From the NCBI GenBank assembly GCA_951406725.2, contig OX597814.1, positions 158,348,001 through 158,412,000 on the forward strand: a DNA stretch of 64,000 nt. Direction: 5' to 3'. Of this stretch, positions 6,617 to 54,402 are shown in pieces. The position numbers and the translations under genes are program-made. Below the pieces are notes generated by a model. The model had not been told where the DNA came from. It did not search any database and was given only the letters and a program-made list of their open reading frames with translations. Source of the DNA: Octopus vulgaris. Lineage: Eukaryota. Every line of letters starts with the position of its first letter. The first letter of the stretch is position 1.

Positions 6617-6667
<51 letters not shown>

Positions 6668-6905
6668 TAAGGGTAGAAATTGATATTTATCAATTAAGAC
6701 CAGTGGTCTAGCATATTAAAAAAGAATCCGAAGATTAAAATATTTATATATACCAATTAAGGACTGAACACGAAAAGTGGACAGTCAACATGCTAGATAT
6801 AGACATCAAATCGTCATTCACCACAAAAGATTATGTTCTCAGATCAAACTCAACACAAAGCCATAGCAATAAACAAGTGAAAAATATACGAAATAAAATA
6901 ATTAC

Positions 6906-6970
6906 CCATGTACTAACTTAGTTTCAGCTGTTATTTTCCGCAAGGAAAACTGCAGCCATCATCAGCATGG
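6906..6970 (-). ncRNA. Type I hammerhead ribozyme, family A
   Basis: Reverse complement of 7537-7601. Confidence 0.85.
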
Positions 6971-7536
6971 TCCGTTATAAATGTAATTTGCTGGACTAGA
7001 TGCAAACACGATACCGAAATATCGCGTGCATGGAGTTCAGCCTATTACATTTGAATATATCTTTCAAATGCCTTTACTTTGGCGCGTTGAAACCCGAGAA
7101 AACTAGCCTGCAGCTAGTAATTAGCAGCAGTTAATTTATCGGTTAGAGAACATATTTATTTATATAAAATTAATTAAGGGTAGAAATTGATATTTATCAA
7201 TTAAGACCAGTGGTCTAGCATATTAAAAAAGAATCCGAAGATTAAAATATTTATATATACCAATTAAGGACTGAACACGAAAAGTGGACAGTCAACATGC
7301 TAGATATAGACGTCAAATCGTCATTCACCACAAAAGATTATGTTCTCAGATCAAACTCAACACAAAACCATAGCAATAAACAAGTGAAAAATATACGAAA
7401 TAAAATAACTCGGGTTTCAACGCGCCAAAGTAAAGGCATTTGAAAGATATATTCAAATGTAATAGGCTGAACTCCATGCACGCGATATTTCGGTATCGTG
7501 TTTGCATCTAGTCCAGCAAATTACATTTATAACGGA

Positions 7537-7601
7537 CCATGCTGATGATGGCTGCAGTTTTCCTTGCGGAAAATAACAGCTGAAACTAAGTTAGTACATG
7601 G
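7537..7601 (+). ncRNA. Type I hammerhead ribozyme, family A
   Basis: CCAUG-CUGAUGA-u-GGCUG...CAGCU-GAAA-CUAAGUUAG-UA^-CAUGG. Stem I is CCAUG/CAUGG, stem III is ACUA/UAGU, with GUA cleavage after 7596. Confidence 0.85.
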
Positions 7602-8043
7602 GTAATTATTTTATTTCGTATATTTTTCACTTGTTTATTGCTATGGTTTTGTGTTGAGTTTGATCTGAGAACATAATCTTTTGTGGTGAATGACGATTTG
7701 ACGTCTATATCTAGCATGTTGACTGTCCACTTTTCGTGTTCAGTCCTTAATTGGTATATATAAATATTTTAATCTTCGGATTCTTTTTTAATATGCTAGA
7801 CCACTGGTCTTAATTGATAAATATCAATTTCTACCCTTAATTAATTTTATATAAATAAATATGTTCTCTAACCGATAAATTAACTGCTGCTAATTACTAG
7901 CTGCAGGTTAGTTTTCTCGGGTTTCAACGCGCCAAAGTAAAGGCATTTGAAAGATATATTCAAATGTAATAGGCTGAACTCCATGCACGCGATATTTCGG
8001 TATCGTGTTTGCATCTAGTCCAGCAAATTACATTTATAACGGA

Positions 8044-8108
8044 CCATGCTGATGATGGCTGCAGTTTTCCTTGCGGAAAATAACAGCTGAAACTAAGTTA
8101 GTACATGG
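8044..8108 (+). ncRNA. Type I hammerhead ribozyme, family A
   Basis: Same as 7537-7601, offset +507. Confidence 0.85.
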
Positions 8109-8550
8109 GTAATTATTTTATTTCGTATATTTTTCACTTGTTTATTGCTATAGTTTTGTGTTGAGTTTGATCTGAGAACATAATCTTTTGTGGTGAATGA
8201 CGATTTGACGTCTATATCTAGCATGTTGACTGTCCACTTTTCGTGTTCAGTCCTTAATTGGTATATATAAATATTTTAATCTTCGGATTCTTTTTTAATA
8301 TGCTAGACCACTGGTCTTAATTGATAAATATCAATTTCTACCCTTAATTAATTTTATATAAATAAATATGTTCTCTAACCGATAAATTAACTGCTGCTAA
8401 TTACTAGCTGCAGGCTAGTTTTCTCGGGTTTCAACGCGCCAAAGTAAAGGCATTTGAAAGATATATTCAAATGTAATAGGCTGAACTCCATGCACGCGAT
8501 ATTTCGGTATCGTGTTTGCATCTAGTCCAGCAAATTACATTTATAACGGA

Positions 8551-8615
8551 CCATGCTGATGATGGCTGCAGTTTTCCTTGCGGAAAATAACAGCTGAAAC
8601 TAAGTTAGTACATGG
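8551..8615 (+). ncRNA. Type I hammerhead ribozyme, family A
   Basis: Same as 7537-7601, offset +1014. Confidence 0.85.
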
Positions 8616-9057
8616 GTAATTATTTTATTTCGTATATTTTTCACTTGTTTATTGCTATGGTTTTGTGTTGAGTTTGATCTGAGAACATAATCTTTTGTGG
8701 TGAATGACGATTTGACGTCTATATCTAGCATGTTGACTGTCCACTTTTCGTGTTCAGTCCTTAATTGGTATATATAAATATTTTAATCTTCGGATTCTTT
8801 TTTAATATGCTAGACCACTGGTCTTAATTGATAAATATCAATTTCTACCCTTAATTAATTTTATATAAATAAATATGTTCTCTAACCGATAAATTAACTG
8901 CTGCTAATTACTAGCTGCAGGCTAGTTTTCTCGGGTTTCAACGCGCCAAAGTAAAGGCATTTGAAAGATATATTCAAATGTAATAGGCTGAACTCCATGC
9001 ACGCGATATTTCGGTATCGTGTTTGCATCTAGTCCAGCAAATTACATTTATAACGGA

Positions 9058-9122
9058 CCATGCTGATGATAGCTGCAGTTTTCCTTGCGGAAAATAACAG
9101 CTGAAACTAAGTTAGTACATGG
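9058..9122 (+). ncRNA. Type I hammerhead ribozyme, family A
   Basis: As above; a G>A change at 9071 turns the first G.U pair of stem II into A-U. Confidence 0.85.
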
Positions 9123-9273
9123 GTAATTATTTTATTTCGTATATTTTTCACTTGTTTATTGCTATGGTTTTGTGTTGAGTTTGATCTGAGAACATAATCT
9201 TTTGTGGTGAATGACGATTTGACGTCTATATCTAGTATGTTGACTGTCCACTTTTCGTGTTCAGTCCTTAATT

Positions 9274-9309
<36 letters not shown>

Positions 9310-9312
<3 letters not shown>

Positions 9313-9683
9313 TTGTTTTCCGTGAAAGTTTGGCGCGCTGTTAGTTGGGGCATTTGAATTATAACGTCGGATGTAATCAATTGAACCACACGCGTATTTA
9401 TCGTTATGGTAAAATCTGGCGTGTGATTGAGTGGATTTCATCCAGATAGTTTTGGCTGAAGAGCTACAAGTGGATTTTATTGTAAGTAAAATTACATTTA
9501 ATTCATTAATAGCGAAACAATTGTCCCAAAATAATCTGTATTTGTTATTTTTTATTTGCCCTGTCCGTGTGAGCTAACAATCGTACTGACTTTCATGGGA
9601 AACATGTATTTTTGTGGTTGAAACCTTTTGGATTAACTGGTGCTAGAGTGAGCCATATAGTGACCACTCTCTTATATTTATTT

Positions 9684-9685
<2 letters not shown>
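9310..9685 (+). mobile_element. (TA)n-flanked non-coding mini-element carrying HHR family B
   Basis: Bounded by (TA)n at 9276-9308 and 9685-9715, with an internal HHR. Confidence 0.7.
9443..9538 (+). ncRNA. Type I hammerhead ribozyme, family B
   Basis: UUUUGG-CUGAAGA-GCUA...UAGC-GAAA-CAAUUG-UC^-CCAAAA. Stem I extends as CAGAU/AUCUG, with GUC cleavage after 9525. Confidence 0.88.
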
Positions 9686-9715
<30 letters not shown>

Positions 9716-9716
9716 G

Positions 9717-10247
9717 TTATCAGTAATAATATAGGGTGAAATTAATTAATTTGGAATAATCATTAATTTCACCAAATTTCATCCCAGTAAATGACCACAA
9801 CATCTTGTCTTAGCTGCACGCTGGTGGGAAGGGGTTGGTGACACAAACTTTCATTCACACTTTGAATTTGGTGATACTGGTAACGGCTTTAGCTCGCTCT
9901 GATACTGAGTTGAGATGATGCCTTCTAGTACCTCGAAATTTAATATACAATTATTCATAATTGTAGTGTCCTACGCTGATGAGAAAATAAGTTGGGTAAG
10001 ACATAATTATCTAATTCTTATGCTTTCCTAAAACTTAATTTCGAAACGTACGTCCGTAGGTGACTTAAAATTGTATGATAGATTGCCGTCATTTCTTTCT
10101 CTCTTGCCTGTCTGTGTTTGCCTTTCAAGTGCTGTGGTTTTACTGAGATCTCCCTTTTAGTAGAAAGAATAGCTATAACTCTTTGACTGCTATTTCTAAA
10201 TTCGGTGTGTGGTGAGGCAAATCGTTGCTAAACCCTTAATTACTTAG

Positions 10248-10248
<1 letters not shown>
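9717..10248 (+). mobile_element. (TA)n-flanked non-coding mini-element carrying HHR family C, with a short inverted terminal piece at 9720-9775
   Basis: Bounded by (TA)n, contains an HHR and ends CCCTTAATTACTTAG(TA)n. Confidence 0.7.
9970..10060 (+). ncRNA. Type I hammerhead ribozyme, family C
   Basis: CCUACG-CUGAUGA-GAAAAUAAGUU...AACUUAAUUUC-GAAA-CGUACG-UC^-CGUAGG, with GUC cleavage after 10054. Confidence 0.9.
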
Positions 10249-10318
<70 letters not shown>

Positions 10319-20550: not shown

Positions 20551-20885
20551 ATACATTATTTACATTTCATGGATATTTGTCCTCATCTTGTTTGTTGTTA
20601 TTCAGGTCGCTGCCTAGAATCGAACTCGGAATCTTTGGGGTTAGTAGCCCGCGCTCTTAACCACTACGACATATGCCCACGGGTATAATAAGAAGAATAA
20701 TAACATCGAAAAATACCTTAGGAATGAGAACCCAGGTTCGAAATTTCCCCAAGAAACCTGATGAAGGCTGGAGGGTAAATCAGCCGAAACAACAAACAAG
20801 ATGAAGACAAATATCCGTCAAATGCATATAATGTAAATATTGTAAATAATGTACATAATCCTTCATCTCTTAAATATAGAACTGA
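20551..20885. mobile_element. tRNA-headed HHR-bearing SINE-like element (family E) in an inverted composite: head plus tail on minus (20551-20683), HHR body plus tail on plus (20684-20885)
   Basis: The minus head reads GGGCATATGTCGTAGTGGTTAAGAGCG..GAGTTCGATTCT. The plus strand has CTGATGA-AGGCTG..CAGCC-GAAAC at 20758-20790. Segment 20551-20600 is an inverted copy of 20788-20836. Confidence 0.75.
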
Positions 20886-25240: not shown

Positions 25241-25726
25241 ATAATCCGCGAGAGTGTGTATGTGTGCATGTTTGTGCGTCTGTGCGTGTGTGTATGTGTG
25301 TGTGTGCGTGCGTGCGTGCGTGTGTGTGTGTGTGTGTGTAATCACTATTTGCATCGTGGGCAACATAATCTTGGACAAATATCTGCATCTTTAATCGTAA
25401 TATGTCTAGGCAGGTTCAGAAACAAAATATGGTAGTCGCTGTAGTGTACGCCATGGAAAAATAACTTATCTCTTTTACTATGACAGTGTGTTTAACGCAC
25501 TCGGCTCATTGGCTCATAGGGGTCTGGGACACCGATGTTTCGACATGTTGTGCTACGTCACCCAATAGTACTCGGGCTTTTGAGCCTAAATCAGGCCGTT
25601 AACTTCGTTAATACTTTCAGCGAAAAAATTGTTTGCTCATCGATGCTTACATCTGCCAACTGATGAAAATGCATTATTTGCACCGTGTCTGAACCCGCAC
25701 AGATGTATTAAAATGCAAATATTCAT

Positions 25727-25757
<31 letters not shown>

Positions 25758-25759
25758 TT

Positions 25760-26240
25760 AATCAATATAGGGTGGCAAAAAAAATTTTGTAGAATTCTTT
25801 TGCCACCAGCGGCCTAGTAGGAAAAAATTAAATAGTCATAAACCATTTTTACGTTCAACATCACAATCAAGGAACGGCCATAATAGGCCATTCACCCACT
25901 AGAAATAACAGCCAAAACCTTTAACCGCAAAATAACATTAATACCGTAAACCAGGAGAAAATTGAAAAACTTTTACCCTGTAATTTCTTAGACGATGCAC
26001 CGTTTCATCTACCGTTTAATGGTAAACTAACCTGATTAAATTAAATCAAGCCAATCCACCATAGGCCCTTAGACTCATCAGTAAGAAATAGCCAAATCGG
26101 AACAGATATTTTTCACGAGGCATTCCTCTTGCTGCCTCGGCAATATCTGACCTAAAATTTTCAAATCGTCGCACTCGCGCCAAATTTATCGGCAGCAAAT
26201 GAACCACCGATTCCGTTACGGAACTAACGGAATTGAACAC
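25760..26240 (-). mobile_element. (TA)n-anchored HHR mini-element, family D, copy 1
   Basis: Homologous to 27740-28195, contains an HHR, and its 3' end abuts (TA)n. Confidence 0.8.
25983..26089 (-). ncRNA. Type I hammerhead ribozyme, family D
   Basis: AUUUCUUA-CUGAUGA-GUCUA...UAGAU-GAAA-CGGUGCAUCG-UC^-UAAGAAAU, with an 8-bp stem I and a long stem II extension. Confidence 0.88.
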
Positions 26241-26477
26241 TTGATGTGGTTTTCGTATCAGATTTTGACTGATATTTCAAGCATGGTGGTATCGCTTAGG
26301 TACCCTTTCATTCTTTTTAGTTTCAGCTCAGAGCTGCGGCCATGCTGATGCACCACCGTTATGCCACCACGCCATTATGCACCACCCTTATTTATATTTT
26401 TAATAATTATAACCTTTAAGGTCCTTTCTTTCCGTACTGCCACTTGATTTGACCGTTGTTTAAAATAATGATCTTAT

Positions 26478-26545
<68 letters not shown>

Positions 26546-27128
26546 GCAGCGTGGAAGGTGTTTATAAGCCATTTAAGAAACACACAAAAGCCGTTCGATT
26601 CACTTCAACATTTAAGTTTAATTTATCAAAATATTTTCGTCGCTAAAATCCGCGACCTGTTCACTGACAAAGTCCGTGCTGCATCTAAGAAAGTAACAGT
26701 TAGTTCGTCATATATATGTACGTATGTATGTGTGTATGTATGCATACATGTGTGTATGTATGTACGTATGCATGTACGCACATACGCCTGTGTATGTATG
26801 TATGTATGTATGTATGTATGTATGTATGTATGTATGTGTGTGTATATGCACGCACATACACTAACGGTATTGAACTAACGGTATTGAACACTTGATGTGG
26901 TTTTCGTATCAGATTTTGACTGATATTTCAAGCATGGTGGTATCGCTTAGGTACCCTTTCATTCTTTTTAGTTTCAGCTCAGAGCTGCGGCCATGCTGAT
27001 GCACCACCGTTATGCCACCACGCCATTATGCACCACCCTTATTTATATTTTTAATAATTATAACCTTTAAGGTCCTTTCTTTCCGTACTGCCACTTGATT
27101 TGCCCGTTGTTTAAAATAATGATCTTAT

Positions 27129-27190
<62 letters not shown>

Positions 27191-27518
27191 GCAGCGTGGA
27201 AGGTGTTTATAAGCCATTTAAGAAACACACAAAAGCCGTTCGATTCACTTCAACATTTAAGTTTAATTTATCAAAATATTTTCGTCGCTAAAATCCGCGA
27301 CCTGTTCACTGACAAAGTCCGTGCTGCATCTAAGAAAGTAACAGTTAGTTCGTCATATATATGTACGTATGTATGTGTGTATGTATGCATACATGTGTGT
27401 ATGTATGTACGTATGCATGTACGCACATACGCCTGTGTATGTATGTATGTATGTATGTATGTATGTATGTATGTATGTATGTATGTATGTATGTGTGTGT
27501 ATATGCACGCACATACAC
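26223..27518. repeat. Near-identical direct tandem duplication of about 650 bp
   Basis: GAACACTTGATGTGG at 26235 and 26886; copies differ mainly in (TA)n and (TATG)n length. Confidence 0.95.
26545..26683. repeat. ~140-bp interspersed repeat with terminal TGCAGC../..GCTGCA inverted ends; other copies at about 27190-27328 and inverted at about 36090-36224
   Basis: Three homologous copies; termini TGCAGCGTGGA and TCCGTGCTGCA. Confidence 0.75.
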
Positions 27519-27739
27519 TCTATAAAACATAAAGCTATAAACCTGTAGCGATGGATGGATGTAGAGTGACCACTCATCACAAAGCTATCAAATTTCAACT
27601 TCCTACGGCCGAAGCTAGAAAGTGATTTATGACGCTTACTCCCAAAACTATACCCTAAAATCTATTATCAGATTTTTATCTCTATATCACAGAACTATTG
27701 TTTTACTGTTATATATTGTTATATATTTACATTTTAGTC

Positions 27740-28193
27740 TCATGACTATTTTTCTTTTCCACTGGGCCGCTGGTAGTGATAAATTTCTATCGAATTTTTT
27801 ACTACCCTAAATTGATTAATTGATTATCTTCTGACTAATTCTGAGATTGAATCGGCAGTTTATATTTGCTGCTGATAAGATTGGCGCGATTACGCTGGTC
27901 TTCGAAAATTTTAAGACAGATATCCCAGAGGCTTCGATGCAGTAGCCTCGTGTATATTTGCCTCTACCAAAGGTTTCTTTACTGATGAGGCGTGACCTAT
28001 GGTAGATTAGCTTAATTTAATTTAATTAAGCTGGTCTATCATTAAAAACGCAGAAACGATGCATCGTCTAAAAGATGAATTAGGGTAAACGTTTTTAATT
28101 TTTCACCTATTTCCGAATTATATTACTTTGCGGTTGGAGTTATGGCTGCTCTGTCTAGTGGATGAATGGCCTGTTAAGGCCATTCCTAAATTG

Positions 28194-28195
<2 letters not shown>
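27740..28195 (+). mobile_element. (TA)n-anchored HHR mini-element, family D, copy 2 (diverged and circularly permuted)
   Basis: Blocks are homologous to the reverse complement of 25760-26240, in rotated order. Confidence 0.75.
27975..28075 (+). ncRNA. Type I hammerhead ribozyme, family D
   Basis: UCUUUA-CUGAUGA-gGCGU...ACGCa-GAAA-CGAUGCAUCG-UC^-UAAAAGA, with GUC cleavage after 28068. Confidence 0.82.
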
Positions 28196-28255
<60 letters not shown>

Positions 28256-28258
28256 ACG

Positions 28259-28307
<49 letters not shown>

Positions 28308-28350
28308 CTCTCTCTCTATATATATATATATTTAAAATAATGATCTTATT

Positions 28351-28405
<55 letters not shown>

Positions 28406-28894
28406 TATATACTAAACAGACACATACGCGTTTGTGCAGGTGTTTGGGGTGTGTGAGTGTATCTGTGTGTGTGTGTGGGGGGGGTAAGCACCTGGCTACA
28501 TTGCCCATTCTATCTCTAAGAATATCCGGTAATCACGTACGCGATGAAATTAATTTATATCTTTTCAATTAATTCTTATTAAGGCCATCTCAGTGGCGCA
28601 CTGATATTTCTAAAAATCATTGTTTTCATCTGTCTTGACAAGAAATGAAAATGTCGTCGATAATACTAATATTCTTTTATGAAAGACTTGGATTTGATAA
28701 CTTTTCAAGTGTGATTATGTGAATAACCGACTTTTATTCTTGATTGAGAGAAAATCCTGTCTGATAGAAGAGATTTGTAATAATATAATTTTAATCTGTC
28801 ATAGCTTTCATTATCTCATAATAATCCTCAGCATAATACGAGTCATTTACTACGATTACTAGTAACTTTTGAAAGAGAATGAGCAACAGATTTT

Positions 28895-29960: not shown

Positions 29961-31399
29961 ACTTACATAATTCAAATGTCCGTAGTTTCGTCAGTACGAT
30001 CGTATTTTCAGGAATAGTGTATCTAACTTTTATGGCATCATAATTTTCATACCCTGTGTAATTAGAAAGCGTCTCACTGTGCCTTTTGCTTCCAGGTACT
30101 AAAATCAGAAACGACGTTGATGGCAATTTTGTCGTTATAGCAAATCCACTTGTATCTATTTTGTGTTTTATAGTATTTTTATAGTTTTTTTTCTATTTTA
30201 TTTTGATATAATTTTATATAATATTATTTCCTTGCATGAAGAATAATTTGTTTCATTCAAACTCTGTGACATTTTTCAGATATTCTCAATAAATCTTATC
30301 TTATTCATGCTAAACGTAATTAATCCTCACTTAAAAGTGGATGCTGTATTCGAACACAGAATACTGCGTTATTTACCATGCAATAACCTTTCATATAGAC
30401 TTGTGGTGCATATAAGCACTCATATTTATATCTCTAGTGGGAGATGATCACCCGCTATCACCGTCGAGTCTGTTAATTCAAGCTATCTCCACCCTTGTTG
30501 GCCTTGTCAATGATAGTCGTCCTTAGCTAGAGATAGCAGCAAATTTCCGTTTGCGATATACATAGTATTTCAGTGTCTATTCAGGCAGTGATGTCAAAAG
30601 CATCCACTTATCTTATATGGAGATAAATACTATCTTTCGTTTTTAATGCTGATTCTATTAGTATTTAATTATTTTTTATAAGCCCCACTGGCTATTTACA
30701 ACACTAATGCCTAAATAGACACTGAGATTCTATGTATATCACTGATGGGGGAATCACTACTATCTCTAGCCACGGGTATCTGCTATTGGTAAAGCCAAGG
30801 AACAGAAGTTATAGGAGCTGGTAGTCCCGGTGGCGATAGTGGACGATTATCTCCTGCCAGCGATATAAATACGACTGTTTGTATCCACTGCAAGTCCTTA
30901 TGAAAGGTTCTCTCTTAGTAATTAACACAGTATTCTGTGTTCTAAAATAACACACACTTTTAAGTAGGAATAAATATTACCTTAACCACGTTGTTTGAGA
31001 TGTAATTCTCAATCTTCTATAGTTGAGAAGTCTTTTCTTTTATATACAATTTAAGGGTTCTACATCGATTATTTTGAATATATATTTTTTTGTTATTCGT
31101 TTTGCATAACAATACACTGATTTCTGACTGAGGATCAAATTGAAAGATGCTATTAGTCTTTGTTTTGTTTTCCTCTCTCTTTCGCAACTGCATGTTACAT
31201 TCTTTTTTTTTCTTTACCTTATTTTCTCTACATTTTATTCCTAAATTTTAGTAGCAGTATTTTAGCACGTTATTTATGCGCGATACATCTAGACAGTATC
31301 TTCAGTTAAGTTGTCAACTTTAATTATTTTTTCATTCTGTTTTTGAGAAACACTTTTTTAAATGAATTCTCCTGTGAAGATTTCTTCTGTCAAATATAT

Positions 31400-34965: not shown

Positions 34966-37088
34966 GTTTCTTATTGTTGATGCTGTTTACAATTTAGAGT
35001 GCTTTGATTGGGCAAACTTATGATCAAATTCATTCTACCTATGGTGATCCTGTCTTTTCTTTATCTTTGTTGCATTATCCAATGTTGATTTCTAAAAGAC
35101 AATAGAGCGTGATGCAAATAAAATTTGACTGTTTTTCTTTGCAGTACGATCGACCTCATAGAGGTATTCTCTTTTTAGTTTGCACGCCAGAACTCTTAGT
35201 GAACAGCAATGGCCCAAGCGTATTTCGTTGAAATATATCTGAGTTTTACAATTATTTGAACACAGAACGAGACTAGATACTCAAAAATATTTCTCAGAAT
35301 GGGAAGAATGCTCTTCCATTGTTTTCACTTTATCGACATTTTCTTTTCAATAAATGTGAATTCTTATGCAGGTTCCATTCTTCAAAGGCTTGAATATAGA
35401 GATAGCTATTAGAAGCAACAAGGGAACATGGCAGTTGCTATTTTTATAGACTGTACGGTGATAAATGACAACGCTTGTTCTGTAAAAATTTTAAACACAT
35501 AATGTAGAGTGTAATTAAAATTAATGATCACCGAAAAACGTTTAGTAAGACAATTAACAGTTTGAGCTGCTTAACCGTCATTTTTTAGTCACTCTGAAGG
35601 AATTCAAATTCATTATCAAATATATTTATTATGCAATGTGATCATAATTACAAATTTTATCATAATAAACATGATTCAACAATTTGCTGAACATTTGGAA
35701 ACTTTCCAAATTAATATTTGGCATGAAGCTATTTGAAAATGTCATCTCTGATAATCATACAAAAATTTTAGTTTACTCTCATTATCTTTATTAATATATT
35801 CACGTGACAGTACATCATATTCAATTTACCAATGATATTTTTAAATGTTTGTAAACTTTATTGTATGAATATTGACGTTCGCAAAATCGTGAATTTTATG
35901 CGGTTATTTCAATATTAAATGAATGTTATATATTTTAGATGTTTAATTAAGTGAAAGTTTAATAAACATTTAATCATGCGATAAAATTAAAATATATTTA
36001 GGATTTTATTTTCATTATTTATCCGAAAATATTCCCTATTTGCCAGCAATATTTATCTTAATATGAAATATTTTACCGTTTTAAACATATGCAGCACGGA
36101 ATTTTGTCAGTGAACAGGTCTCAAAGCGATGAAAATATTTTGGCAAATTAAATTTAAATGTTGAAGTGAAGCTAACGGTTTTTGTGTGTTTCTTAAATGG
36201 CTTATAAACACCTTCCACGCTGCAAACATATTTTAAAATGTGAAAAATAAAATGAACATACGCACACAGTCACACATAGATACATACATACATACATACA
36301 TACATACATACATGCATACATACATACATACATACATACATACATACATACATACATACATACATACATACATACAAGGACCCTTGGATCTAGGGTAGAA
36401 ACTGGTTCTTTGTCTACTGGCAAGAAATCTTGAAATAAACTGAACATTCTTTTTTTGGTTAAGAGAAGATTTATTGATATGTAAACGTGTGTCTGTGTGT
36501 GCGTCATGTATACAAAATAATAGATAGGCCATCACGAGAACAACTTTTATGTGGGCGTGTAAACCTAGATGTATGCGTGGGTGTTAAAAAATATAAGTAT
36601 GGCAATAAAGAAGATGACCGCGAAAGAGTCAATAGCCATCGAAGTGAGAAGTTCATAGACACAAGAATGAGAATACCAGTAGTCACTTGTACGTGGTAAT
36701 TGAAATACTGTTTCAAGAAATCGCGGCCATAATGCTGAGCAGCTTGTAGGTACATCTCGTACGTGAAGTCGTGGCTGTGTGGGTCATTTGATACAGGAGT
36801 TCTTGCTGTTGATCCATGGTGCAGTAATTCACGAACAGTGAAGTGTTGGGACATTGACTAGTTGCTGGTTGAGCTGTGTACGTAGAGAGATGATGTTGAC
36901 GACATTAAAAAGATGAAGGTTACCGTAATACTGTTGGTAAATCTCCACCGTGGTGCAGGTGTTGTCATCTGCGTTGTCGCTGGAACTGGCTGTGCCATTT
37001 CTGGATTGTGGGTAGACCTTAAAAGGTCTGGAACCGAAAGACCTAATAAATAAAGAGAATAAACTGAATAAACTGTACAAATAATACT

Positions 37089-37214: not shown

Positions 37215-37620
<406 letters not shown>

Positions 37621-52590: not shown

Positions 52591-54402
<1,812 letters not shown>

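Follow-up and report, generated by a model that had tools for sequence, protein, structure and literature searches.

Two copies of a repeat with a predicted hammerhead ribozyme lie on opposite strands of the 64,000-nucleotide stretch of Octopus vulgaris DNA analysed here (the window; contig OX597814.1), and the order of their sequence blocks differs by a rotation. This raises the question of which template was copied at this locus and which enzyme inserted the copies. For animal retrozymes, the mobilising partner and the template have so far been inferred. The accessible text of a 2020 review describes animal retrozyme repeats as having no conserved motif that points to a mobilising partner (PMC7761336). 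Mobilisation of non-LTR retrozymes by PLEs has been proposed before (PMC7229834; 10.64898/2026.07.22.740005).

Two rotated copies of one unit

The minus-strand copy, B1 (25758-26214), and the plus-strand copy, B2 (27715-28201), had been predicted to carry the block orders B-HHR-C-D and D-B-HHR-C, respectively, both terminating at (TA)n, and a blastn comparison of the two regions confirmed this arrangement. Minus-strand sequence from 26213 to 25860 aligned with plus-strand 27849-28197 (72% over 363 columns, E = 7e-41). Block D was matched separately, 25839 to 25758 on the minus strand with 27742-27819 on the plus strand (77% over 82 columns, E = 2e-9); it scored 85, whereas the scores of 1000 shuffles averaged 31 and did not exceed 50. 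When B1 and B2 were set in one register, 332 of 436 columns (76%) were identical. B2 consists of a 475-bp unit (27715-28189) followed by a 12-nt repeat of its own start, which runs into the (TA)n. B1 amounts to about 0.95 turn because about 20-30 nt of the D-B linker are missing from it; weak homology may reach position 26226. The conclusion that B1 and B2 are rotations of one unit of about 475 bases with a predicted hammerhead, forming a retrozyme pair, is well supported.

The 12 nt at the start of B2 (27715) that recur at its end (28190) were considered as a TSD and rejected. Since they align with an internal stretch of the unit of a related 507-bp array, they represent a terminal redundancy internal to the element. 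Where metazoan non-LTR retrozymes have a TSD it is large; here any TSD of either copy would be masked by the microsatellite flanks. The 475-bp unit is non-coding: no ORF of at least 110 aa overlaps B1 or B2, and the region has a GC content of about 35-40%. A blastn self-comparison of the region found no LTR pair, and the RT plus GIY-YIG ORF that is a feature of an autonomous EN+ PLE is absent from B1 and B2.

About 1.5 kb of other repeat DNA separates the two copies. It includes a 651-bp tandem duplication of unrelated repeat DNA (26221-27519), which carries 2 substitutions and, at its junction, a doubled piece of 14 bp, and which may be recent or an assembly artefact. A separate high-copy repeat (27520-27707), other copies of which run on into microsatellite, abuts the 5' end of B2, with 5 nt of microhomology at the junction. 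To the right of B2, a 26-nt piece and the (TA)n of the 651-bp unit recur at 28331-28357, suggesting local template switching.

The plus-copy sequence was present, at least in part, in 20 of 24 listed public runs (9 studies, 4 organism labels). Contigs of four of the 24 runs (X1, X3, X6 and X8) were compared at 80% likeness with 27520-28194, that is, with the plus-copy side only. All 30 bins were covered in each of the four runs, and two large runs gave 806 and 576 contigs; such coverage indicates a many-copy family, depth being no copy number. A joint leading from 28189 back by 475 to 27715 was found in 2 of the 4 runs, in one contig each of X6 (shorter side 141 nt; 6 of 314 nt differ) and X8 (59 nt), and not in the contigs of X1 or X3. 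Among the loose ends listed, one X3 contig had a 17-nt loose end before 27715 that equals the end of block C. By guessed labels X6 and X8 are RNA and X3 is DNA, all of the sequences being contigs, and X6 and X8 are uninformative on expression because the unrelated upstream repeat was covered too. End and start of the 475-bp unit are thus joined, also in the DNA-labelled run. The D-to-B junction is present in B2, and the C-to-D junction in B1 and in public contigs. Head-to-tail occurrence is seen both in the C-to-D joint of the contigs, each without a second hammerhead in view, and in the 507-bp array.

These joints bear on the possibility that B1 and B2 are solo 5'-truncated pLTR fragments of an autonomous PLE with its ORF outside the window, in which case the D-B order would be a partial tandem and there would be no free retrozyme. 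Partial tandems with inverted copies and tails are typical of PLE insertions (PMC8557442; PMC3846280), and vertebrate retrozymes resemble pLTRs (10.64898/2026.07.22.740005). However, the contigs close the unit at 475 bp with no intervening ORF, and the 507-bp array has 3.7 repeats without an ORF. The 4-bp stem III of B1 and B2 is also unlike the minimal pLTR hammerheads of the window. We therefore regard an origin as PLE fragments as unlikely.

The pLTR-like repeat of the window has a predicted minimal type I hammerhead and is found once in each 651-bp unit (26543-26700 and 27188-27345, both minus) and at 36089-36231 (plus). Two copies end at (TA)n and the third is decayed; a G3-C8 swap is present in the hammerhead core at 26664 and 27309 (minus). 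Comparison of the retrozyme elements with these three pieces gave p > 0.1 in 12 of 12 cases, and a likeness of the pLTR 3' end suspected by eye was rejected as not significant. A second pLTR-like family with a minimal hammerhead-like core lies near (TAA)n at 20685-20880 (plus) and 37223-37413 (minus), and neither copy passed the hammerhead descriptor.

No viral contig had the hammerhead pattern. A pattern scan of metagenomes returned 14 loci, which were rejected as chance matches. Eleven of them were GC-rich and without likeness; the three AT-rich loci had a stem I of 1 bp and were within shuffle range in 5 of 6 comparisons and just above it in 1 of 6. In the one AT-rich locus that was checked, the match falls inside an ORF.

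Predicted hammerheads and conservation of pairing

Each copy contains a predicted type I hammerhead. That of B1 lies at 25983-26089 on the minus strand (stem I of 8 bp, core at 26081, predicted cut after C25991) and that of B2 at 27978-28072 on the plus strand (stem I of 4 bp plus a bulge, core at 27982, predicted cut after C28068). CUGAUGA, GAAA, a 4-bp stem III with a UGCA loop, a GUC site and an open stem I are found in both; stem III of B2 is palindromic. Stem II comprises 68 nt in B1 and 64 nt in B2, each with a terminal 19-bp hairpin. The helices quoted in the original prediction, GUCUA/UAGAU and GCGU/ACGC at the base of stem II and UUGAUU/AAUCAG and UUAAUU/AAUUAA in its extension, were all found. 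The claim that the two hammerheads keep their pairing holds for these helices, but a G.A mismatch at the stem II base of B2 had been passed over. Because B2 has G.A where B1 has G-U (10.1/11.1 in what we take to be the usual hammerhead numbering), the base helices are offset by one pair. A mismatch at 27989 is a family trait, since A is the majority base there (about 98% of summed depth in X1). Axolotl HHR_Amex2 has U.U at the equivalent position (PMC7229834).

In a descriptor scan with a combined-stem cut-off, B1 passed and B2, with its weak stem I, was just below. Across the window the scan found 12 hammerhead motifs, whereas 20 shuffles gave 0.15 on average. The hammerhead fold is 3.9 (B1) and 7.9 (B2) kcal/mol above the minimum-energy fold. 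Fold z values were -3.0 and -5.9 for the sense strand and -0.95 and -2.35 for the antisense strand. The circular fold predicted for the unit has an energy of -139 kcal/mol with 63% of bases paired (z = -6.8 against 25 shuffles; antisense z = -4.4). Rfam gave no hammerhead match in the whole window at the gathering score, and no hammerhead family was among 79 matches in 25500-28500 at E ≤ 10; miRNA-like Rfam matches were rejected as microsatellites. Because the long stem II escapes Rfam, such retrozyme families may be undercounted.

The original prediction took compensatory changes between the hammerheads as a sign of selection on the fold. In the 19-bp hairpin, all 8 pairs that changed between B1 and B2 still pair, 7 by one-sided changes through G-U and 1 by a two-sided change; the hairpin has 9 G-U pairs and no A-C pairs. 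For the whole unit, pairs were predicted from one copy and scored in the other under two nulls, with antisense controls. With the structure from B2, 22 of 32 changed pairs were kept (p = 0.003 and < 5e-5); with that from B1, 19 of 32 (p = 0.11, which is not significant, and 0.004). The antisense controls gave p = 0.22-0.95. Substitution rates at paired (0.22) and unpaired (0.25) positions were close. Strict two-sided covariation between the two sequences amounted to 4 changes against 1.7-1.8 expected, which is not significant (p of about 0.08), and a shuffling control of two-sequence covariation gave 122 of 500. Two of the four two-sided changes sit in the D hairpin (27742-27819 in B2). In the public contigs the majority state differs from B2 at both 27991 (C>T) and 28050 (G>A), which together make a C-G to U-A swap, the contigs giving no phasing of the two. 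Changes in the core and cleavage site, U7>C and C17>A among 40 of 58 variant rows, are at positions that we presume to be tolerant. Thus pairing is conserved on the sense strand, and the covariation argument stands in that form, strict covariation falling short with two sequences. The strand-specific conservation supports the idea that selection acts on the RNA fold.

A-to-I editing of hairpin RNA before reinsertion, a speculative reading that concerns the covariation claim alone, could also yield fold-compatible changes, and of the 7 one-sided changes in the 19-bp hairpin, 4 concern A/G opposite U. The other 3 of 7 are C/U opposite G, two-sided swaps are present in stem II and D, and the variant rows listed for X1 have no A>G excess (5 A>G, 7 T>C, 5 G>A, 6 C>T). 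We find this explanation hardly credible.

Related elements and their ends at (TA)n

Four further hammerhead loci of the window are informative for the ends. The 507-bp array, element A (6660-9288), is an inverted arm of 1.48 turns head-to-head with an arm of 3.68 turns, 99% identical. The inverted arm has D and the direct arm lacks it, (TA)n lies outside both ends, and there is no ORF; A is likely to be one two-sided insertion. Three elements with type I hammerheads and long stem II also end at (TA)n: E (9310-9686, plus, core 9456), F (about 9800-10249, plus, core 9976) and element C (29678 to about 30230, minus, core 29994). A fragment at 9716 to about 9800 (minus), head-to-head with the 9976 element, has a D-like hairpin and a CCTWWATT end at (TA)n; no hammerhead was found in it. 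Weak collinear similarity was detected for B2-A (z = 6.2), B1-E (5.0), A-E (4.9), C-F (4.3) and A-C (3.5), and the remaining 10 of 15 element pairs (B1-B2 left out) had z ≤ 1.6. The B1/B2 pair had been put forward as support independent of the array. It is a separate insertion, but a distant relative of A (z = 6.2-6.3) and no unrelated system. A likeness of the left flanks of the array and of the B1/B2 pair was rejected (z = 1.4).

None of the seven termini at (TA)n, with the TA-side ends read by eye, is at the predicted cleavage site. They lie 126 (B2), 160 (A), 161 (E), 195 (F), 233 (B1), 251 (A) and 252 (C) nt past the cut. By alignment within this window, 6 of the 7 occupy two homologous sites next to (TA)n, separated by about 100 nt. 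The site before D is used by B2, the right arm of A and E; the site after D by B1, the inverted arm of A and element C. The end of F fits neither. In B2 the first end type is at 28183-28194 (plus), has the CCTWWATT motif and is homologous to the right end of the array; the tract at 28195-28251 is the presumed target. In B1 the second end type closes the C-D linker and block D (25758-25863, minus); together these form a predicted tail, about 105 nt long and including a 13-bp hairpin, that terminates in CCTWWATT next to the presumed target tract at 25733-25757. Block D of B2, which has its own hairpin, differs from that of B1 by two compensatory pair changes. The expectation of free rotation, with ends anywhere on a circle, is contradicted by these fixed termini.

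Of 6 flanks linked to a hammerhead, 5 have the CCTWWATT motif no more than 32 nt from the tract, as compared to 1 of the 29 remaining flanks (Fisher p = 1e-4), a test in which the motif was chosen after looking, two of the five motif ends come from one array, and 35 of 90 flanks were used, 55 simple-repeat flanks being dropped with that of E among them; E is without the strict motif. The tract is always at the RNA-sense 3' end of the elements. TA microhomology or internal TA runs are present at both ends of family A and at the B2 end, and the sequence examined at the B1 and F ends has no long internal TA run.

A second motif, TTGGCGCG, is found in B1 at 26176-26183 (minus) and in B2 at 27881-27888 (plus). 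All 8 of its matches in the window (7079, 7421, 7928, 8435, 8942, 9330, 26176 and 27881) are inside hammerhead elements, where 0.34 is expected for a motif that was picked after looking. It lies about 95-126 nt 5' of the core, with its orientation flipped in the 507-bp family, and is absent from elements C and F. We take the motif to be E2F-like, and it is possibly a candidate internal promoter.

These ends allow a DNA-level origin to be weighed. Satellite DNA could spread by extrachromosomal circles and unequal crossover, its units entering (TA)n by microhomology with the ribozyme as a passenger. The junction in the DNA-labelled run, the coincidence of the A and B2 ends with internal TA runs and the 651-bp duplication between the copies, itself a DNA-level event, all agree with such a process. 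It does not account for pairing conserved on one strand, for a hairpin with G-U and no A-C pairs, for the constant position of (TA)n at the RNA-sense 3' end, or for an end motif common to diverged families. Spread as a satellite is thus quite improbable.

Template and mobilising enzyme

We consider it probable that B1 and B2 are diverged copies of a 475-bp non-LTR retrozyme that were put into (TA)n by a PLE RT starting at two fixed sites on an RNA that spans the ribozyme. A tandem source array would be transcribed, and its hammerheads would cut the transcript into monomers, which would be ligated into circles. A PLE endonuclease would nick (TA)n, and the RT would start on one or the other side of D, before it for the plus copy and after it for the minus copy, which would make block D an optional tail. 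About one turn would then be copied, giving D-B-HHR-C or B-HHR-C-D. If D is read as a tail, the rotation is directly explained by a start before or after D.

A hammerhead-released monomer would begin and end at the cut site. Since the ribozyme is intact in the middle of B1 and B2, the template spanned the cleavage site and was a circle or an uncut tandem; a cleaved linear monomer is excluded as the template by the rotation. Rotation had been taken as the mark of a circular or tandem RNA template. That the template spans the cut site stands, but rotation does not separate circle from tandem, and the inference should be restricted to two fixed start sites on either kind of template, in place of free rotation on a circle. 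Tandem DNA alone could explain the contig joint because that joint is also in the DNA-labelled run. The length of both copies, close to one turn, speaks mildly for a circle, but the pair was chosen for study and the 5' junction of B2 could have been fixed by the 5-nt microhomology. Within the PLE-retrozyme reading we lean to a circular template and give an uncut tandem transcript a substantial share.

In the PLE PAc, the RT has two internal start sites, and the stretch that separates them forms the optional tail; it extends both DNA strands, starts with no homology to the cut DNA and uses uncut RNA as its main substrate (PMC11167929). Because uncut RNA dominates in PAc, a circle is not required. 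PLE insertions form partial tandems, carry an inverted copy on the 5' side and a tail at one of their ends, and favour (TA)n (PMC8557442; PMC3846280). The ends found here show a pattern that a PLE RT makes in vitro. Similar to EN+ PLEs (PAc Poseidon, PMC11167929; Neptune/Naiad, PMC8557442), the elements have two end sites flanking an optional tail, an inverted 5' arm in the case of array A, partial tandems, an AT-rich or (TA)n target and a type I hammerhead. Unlike them, they have no ORF, a full stem III in place of a minimal hammerhead and TA microhomology at some ends. A further point against the PLE reading is the length of D, about 100-105 nt as compared to 30-40 nt for described tails. 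B1 and B2 are head-to-head with the same polarity as array A, but their arms are 76% identical and 1.5 kb apart, and a single insertion event for both is conceivable but doubtful.

The window contains a PLE-like ORF fragment of 320 aa (53290-54252, minus) with a Cys-rich linker and a GIY-YIG-like region, 5'-truncated near (TA)n. In its Atlas clusters, 28% of members have GIY-YIG and 17% have HTH_animal; the ORF had no match in Pfam or NCBIfam. No sequence similarity was found between the elements and the 3' region of this fragment, which, like the lack of similarity to the pLTR-like pieces, counts against the PLE reading.

Mobilisation by a LINE (R4/Dong-like, CR1/L2-like or RTE) would require microhomology priming at any UA-rich site of the circle, the end classes being two such sites. 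LINE fragments are present in the window, and internal TA runs occur at both family A ends and the B2 end. However, the B1 and F ends have no long internal TA run, and the R4-like copy of the window ends in (AAT)n, not (TA)n. Moreover, a head-to-head arrangement in which one arm carries a tail is known from PLEs (PMC8557442; PMC3846280), so a LINE is a rather poor candidate. B1 and B2 belong to the animal non-LTR retrozymes and were likely mobilised by a PLE.

B1 and B2 share the sequence-level features of metazoan non-LTR retrozymes (PMC7229834), with cleavage and circRNA being predicted. As in coral, mussel and axolotl, a non-coding low-GC unit has one type I hammerhead and head-to-tail junctions, the predicted RNA is highly paired and PLEs are present in the same genome; a mismatch or wobble at the stem II base is shared with axolotl HHR_Amex2 (PMC7229834). 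The described families are transcribed into linear and circular RNAs, self-cleave in vitro and have no LTR, PBS or PPT (PMC7229834). Differences from the metazoan families are a 475-bp unit, slightly above their 150-450 bp, a stem II of 64-68 nt with a 19-bp hairpin, and (TA)n ends at two fixed sites with a common motif and head-to-head pairs (PMC7229834). Similar to vertebrate non-LTR retrozymes (10.64898/2026.07.22.740005), the size is within the 51-972 bp range, solo monomers and tandem arrays occur, and a PLE partner is proposed. The vertebrate PLE link came from co-occurrence and pLTR similarity, whereas here it comes from insertion anatomy with no similarity to the pLTR-like pieces of the window; the accessible main text of that work does not mention 'tail', 'head-to-head' or 'target site'. 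Plant LTR retrozymes (PMC7761336; 10.64898/2026.07.22.740005) are likewise non-autonomous hammerhead retroelements with a proposed circular intermediate, but they have a type III hammerhead, LTRs, PBS, PPT and a 4-bp TSD, as compared to a type I hammerhead and no LTR pair here. Our literature search, conducted mostly outside subscription journals, found no cephalopod retrozymes or tail-type retrozyme ends; the supplement of PMC7229834 may list similar invertebrate families. The accessible main text on the Octopus vulgaris repeat annotation does not mention ribozymes, hammerheads or retrozymes.

A broader model is possible but tentative: a superfamily of circles with long stem II may hijack a (TA)n-targeting PLE through block D between two CCTWWATT start sites, with both nicked strands priming and an orientation-free TTGGCGCG site as internal promoter. 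If so, one event would write two retrozyme subfamilies head-to-head, one tailed and one tail-less, and the conserved D module would supply the so far missing signal in cis that identifies which partner mobilises animal retrozymes. The two exact candidate start sites and their common motif can be used in genome-wide and bench tests.

The window as a whole is AT-rich and microsatellite-dense, with LINE fragments. At 136-2435, tandem 3' fragments of a LINE that we take to be R4/Dong-like lie between (TAA)n tracts. An imperfect palindrome of about 660 bp at 30317-30976, with a self-match of 67%, is possibly a decayed foldback element.
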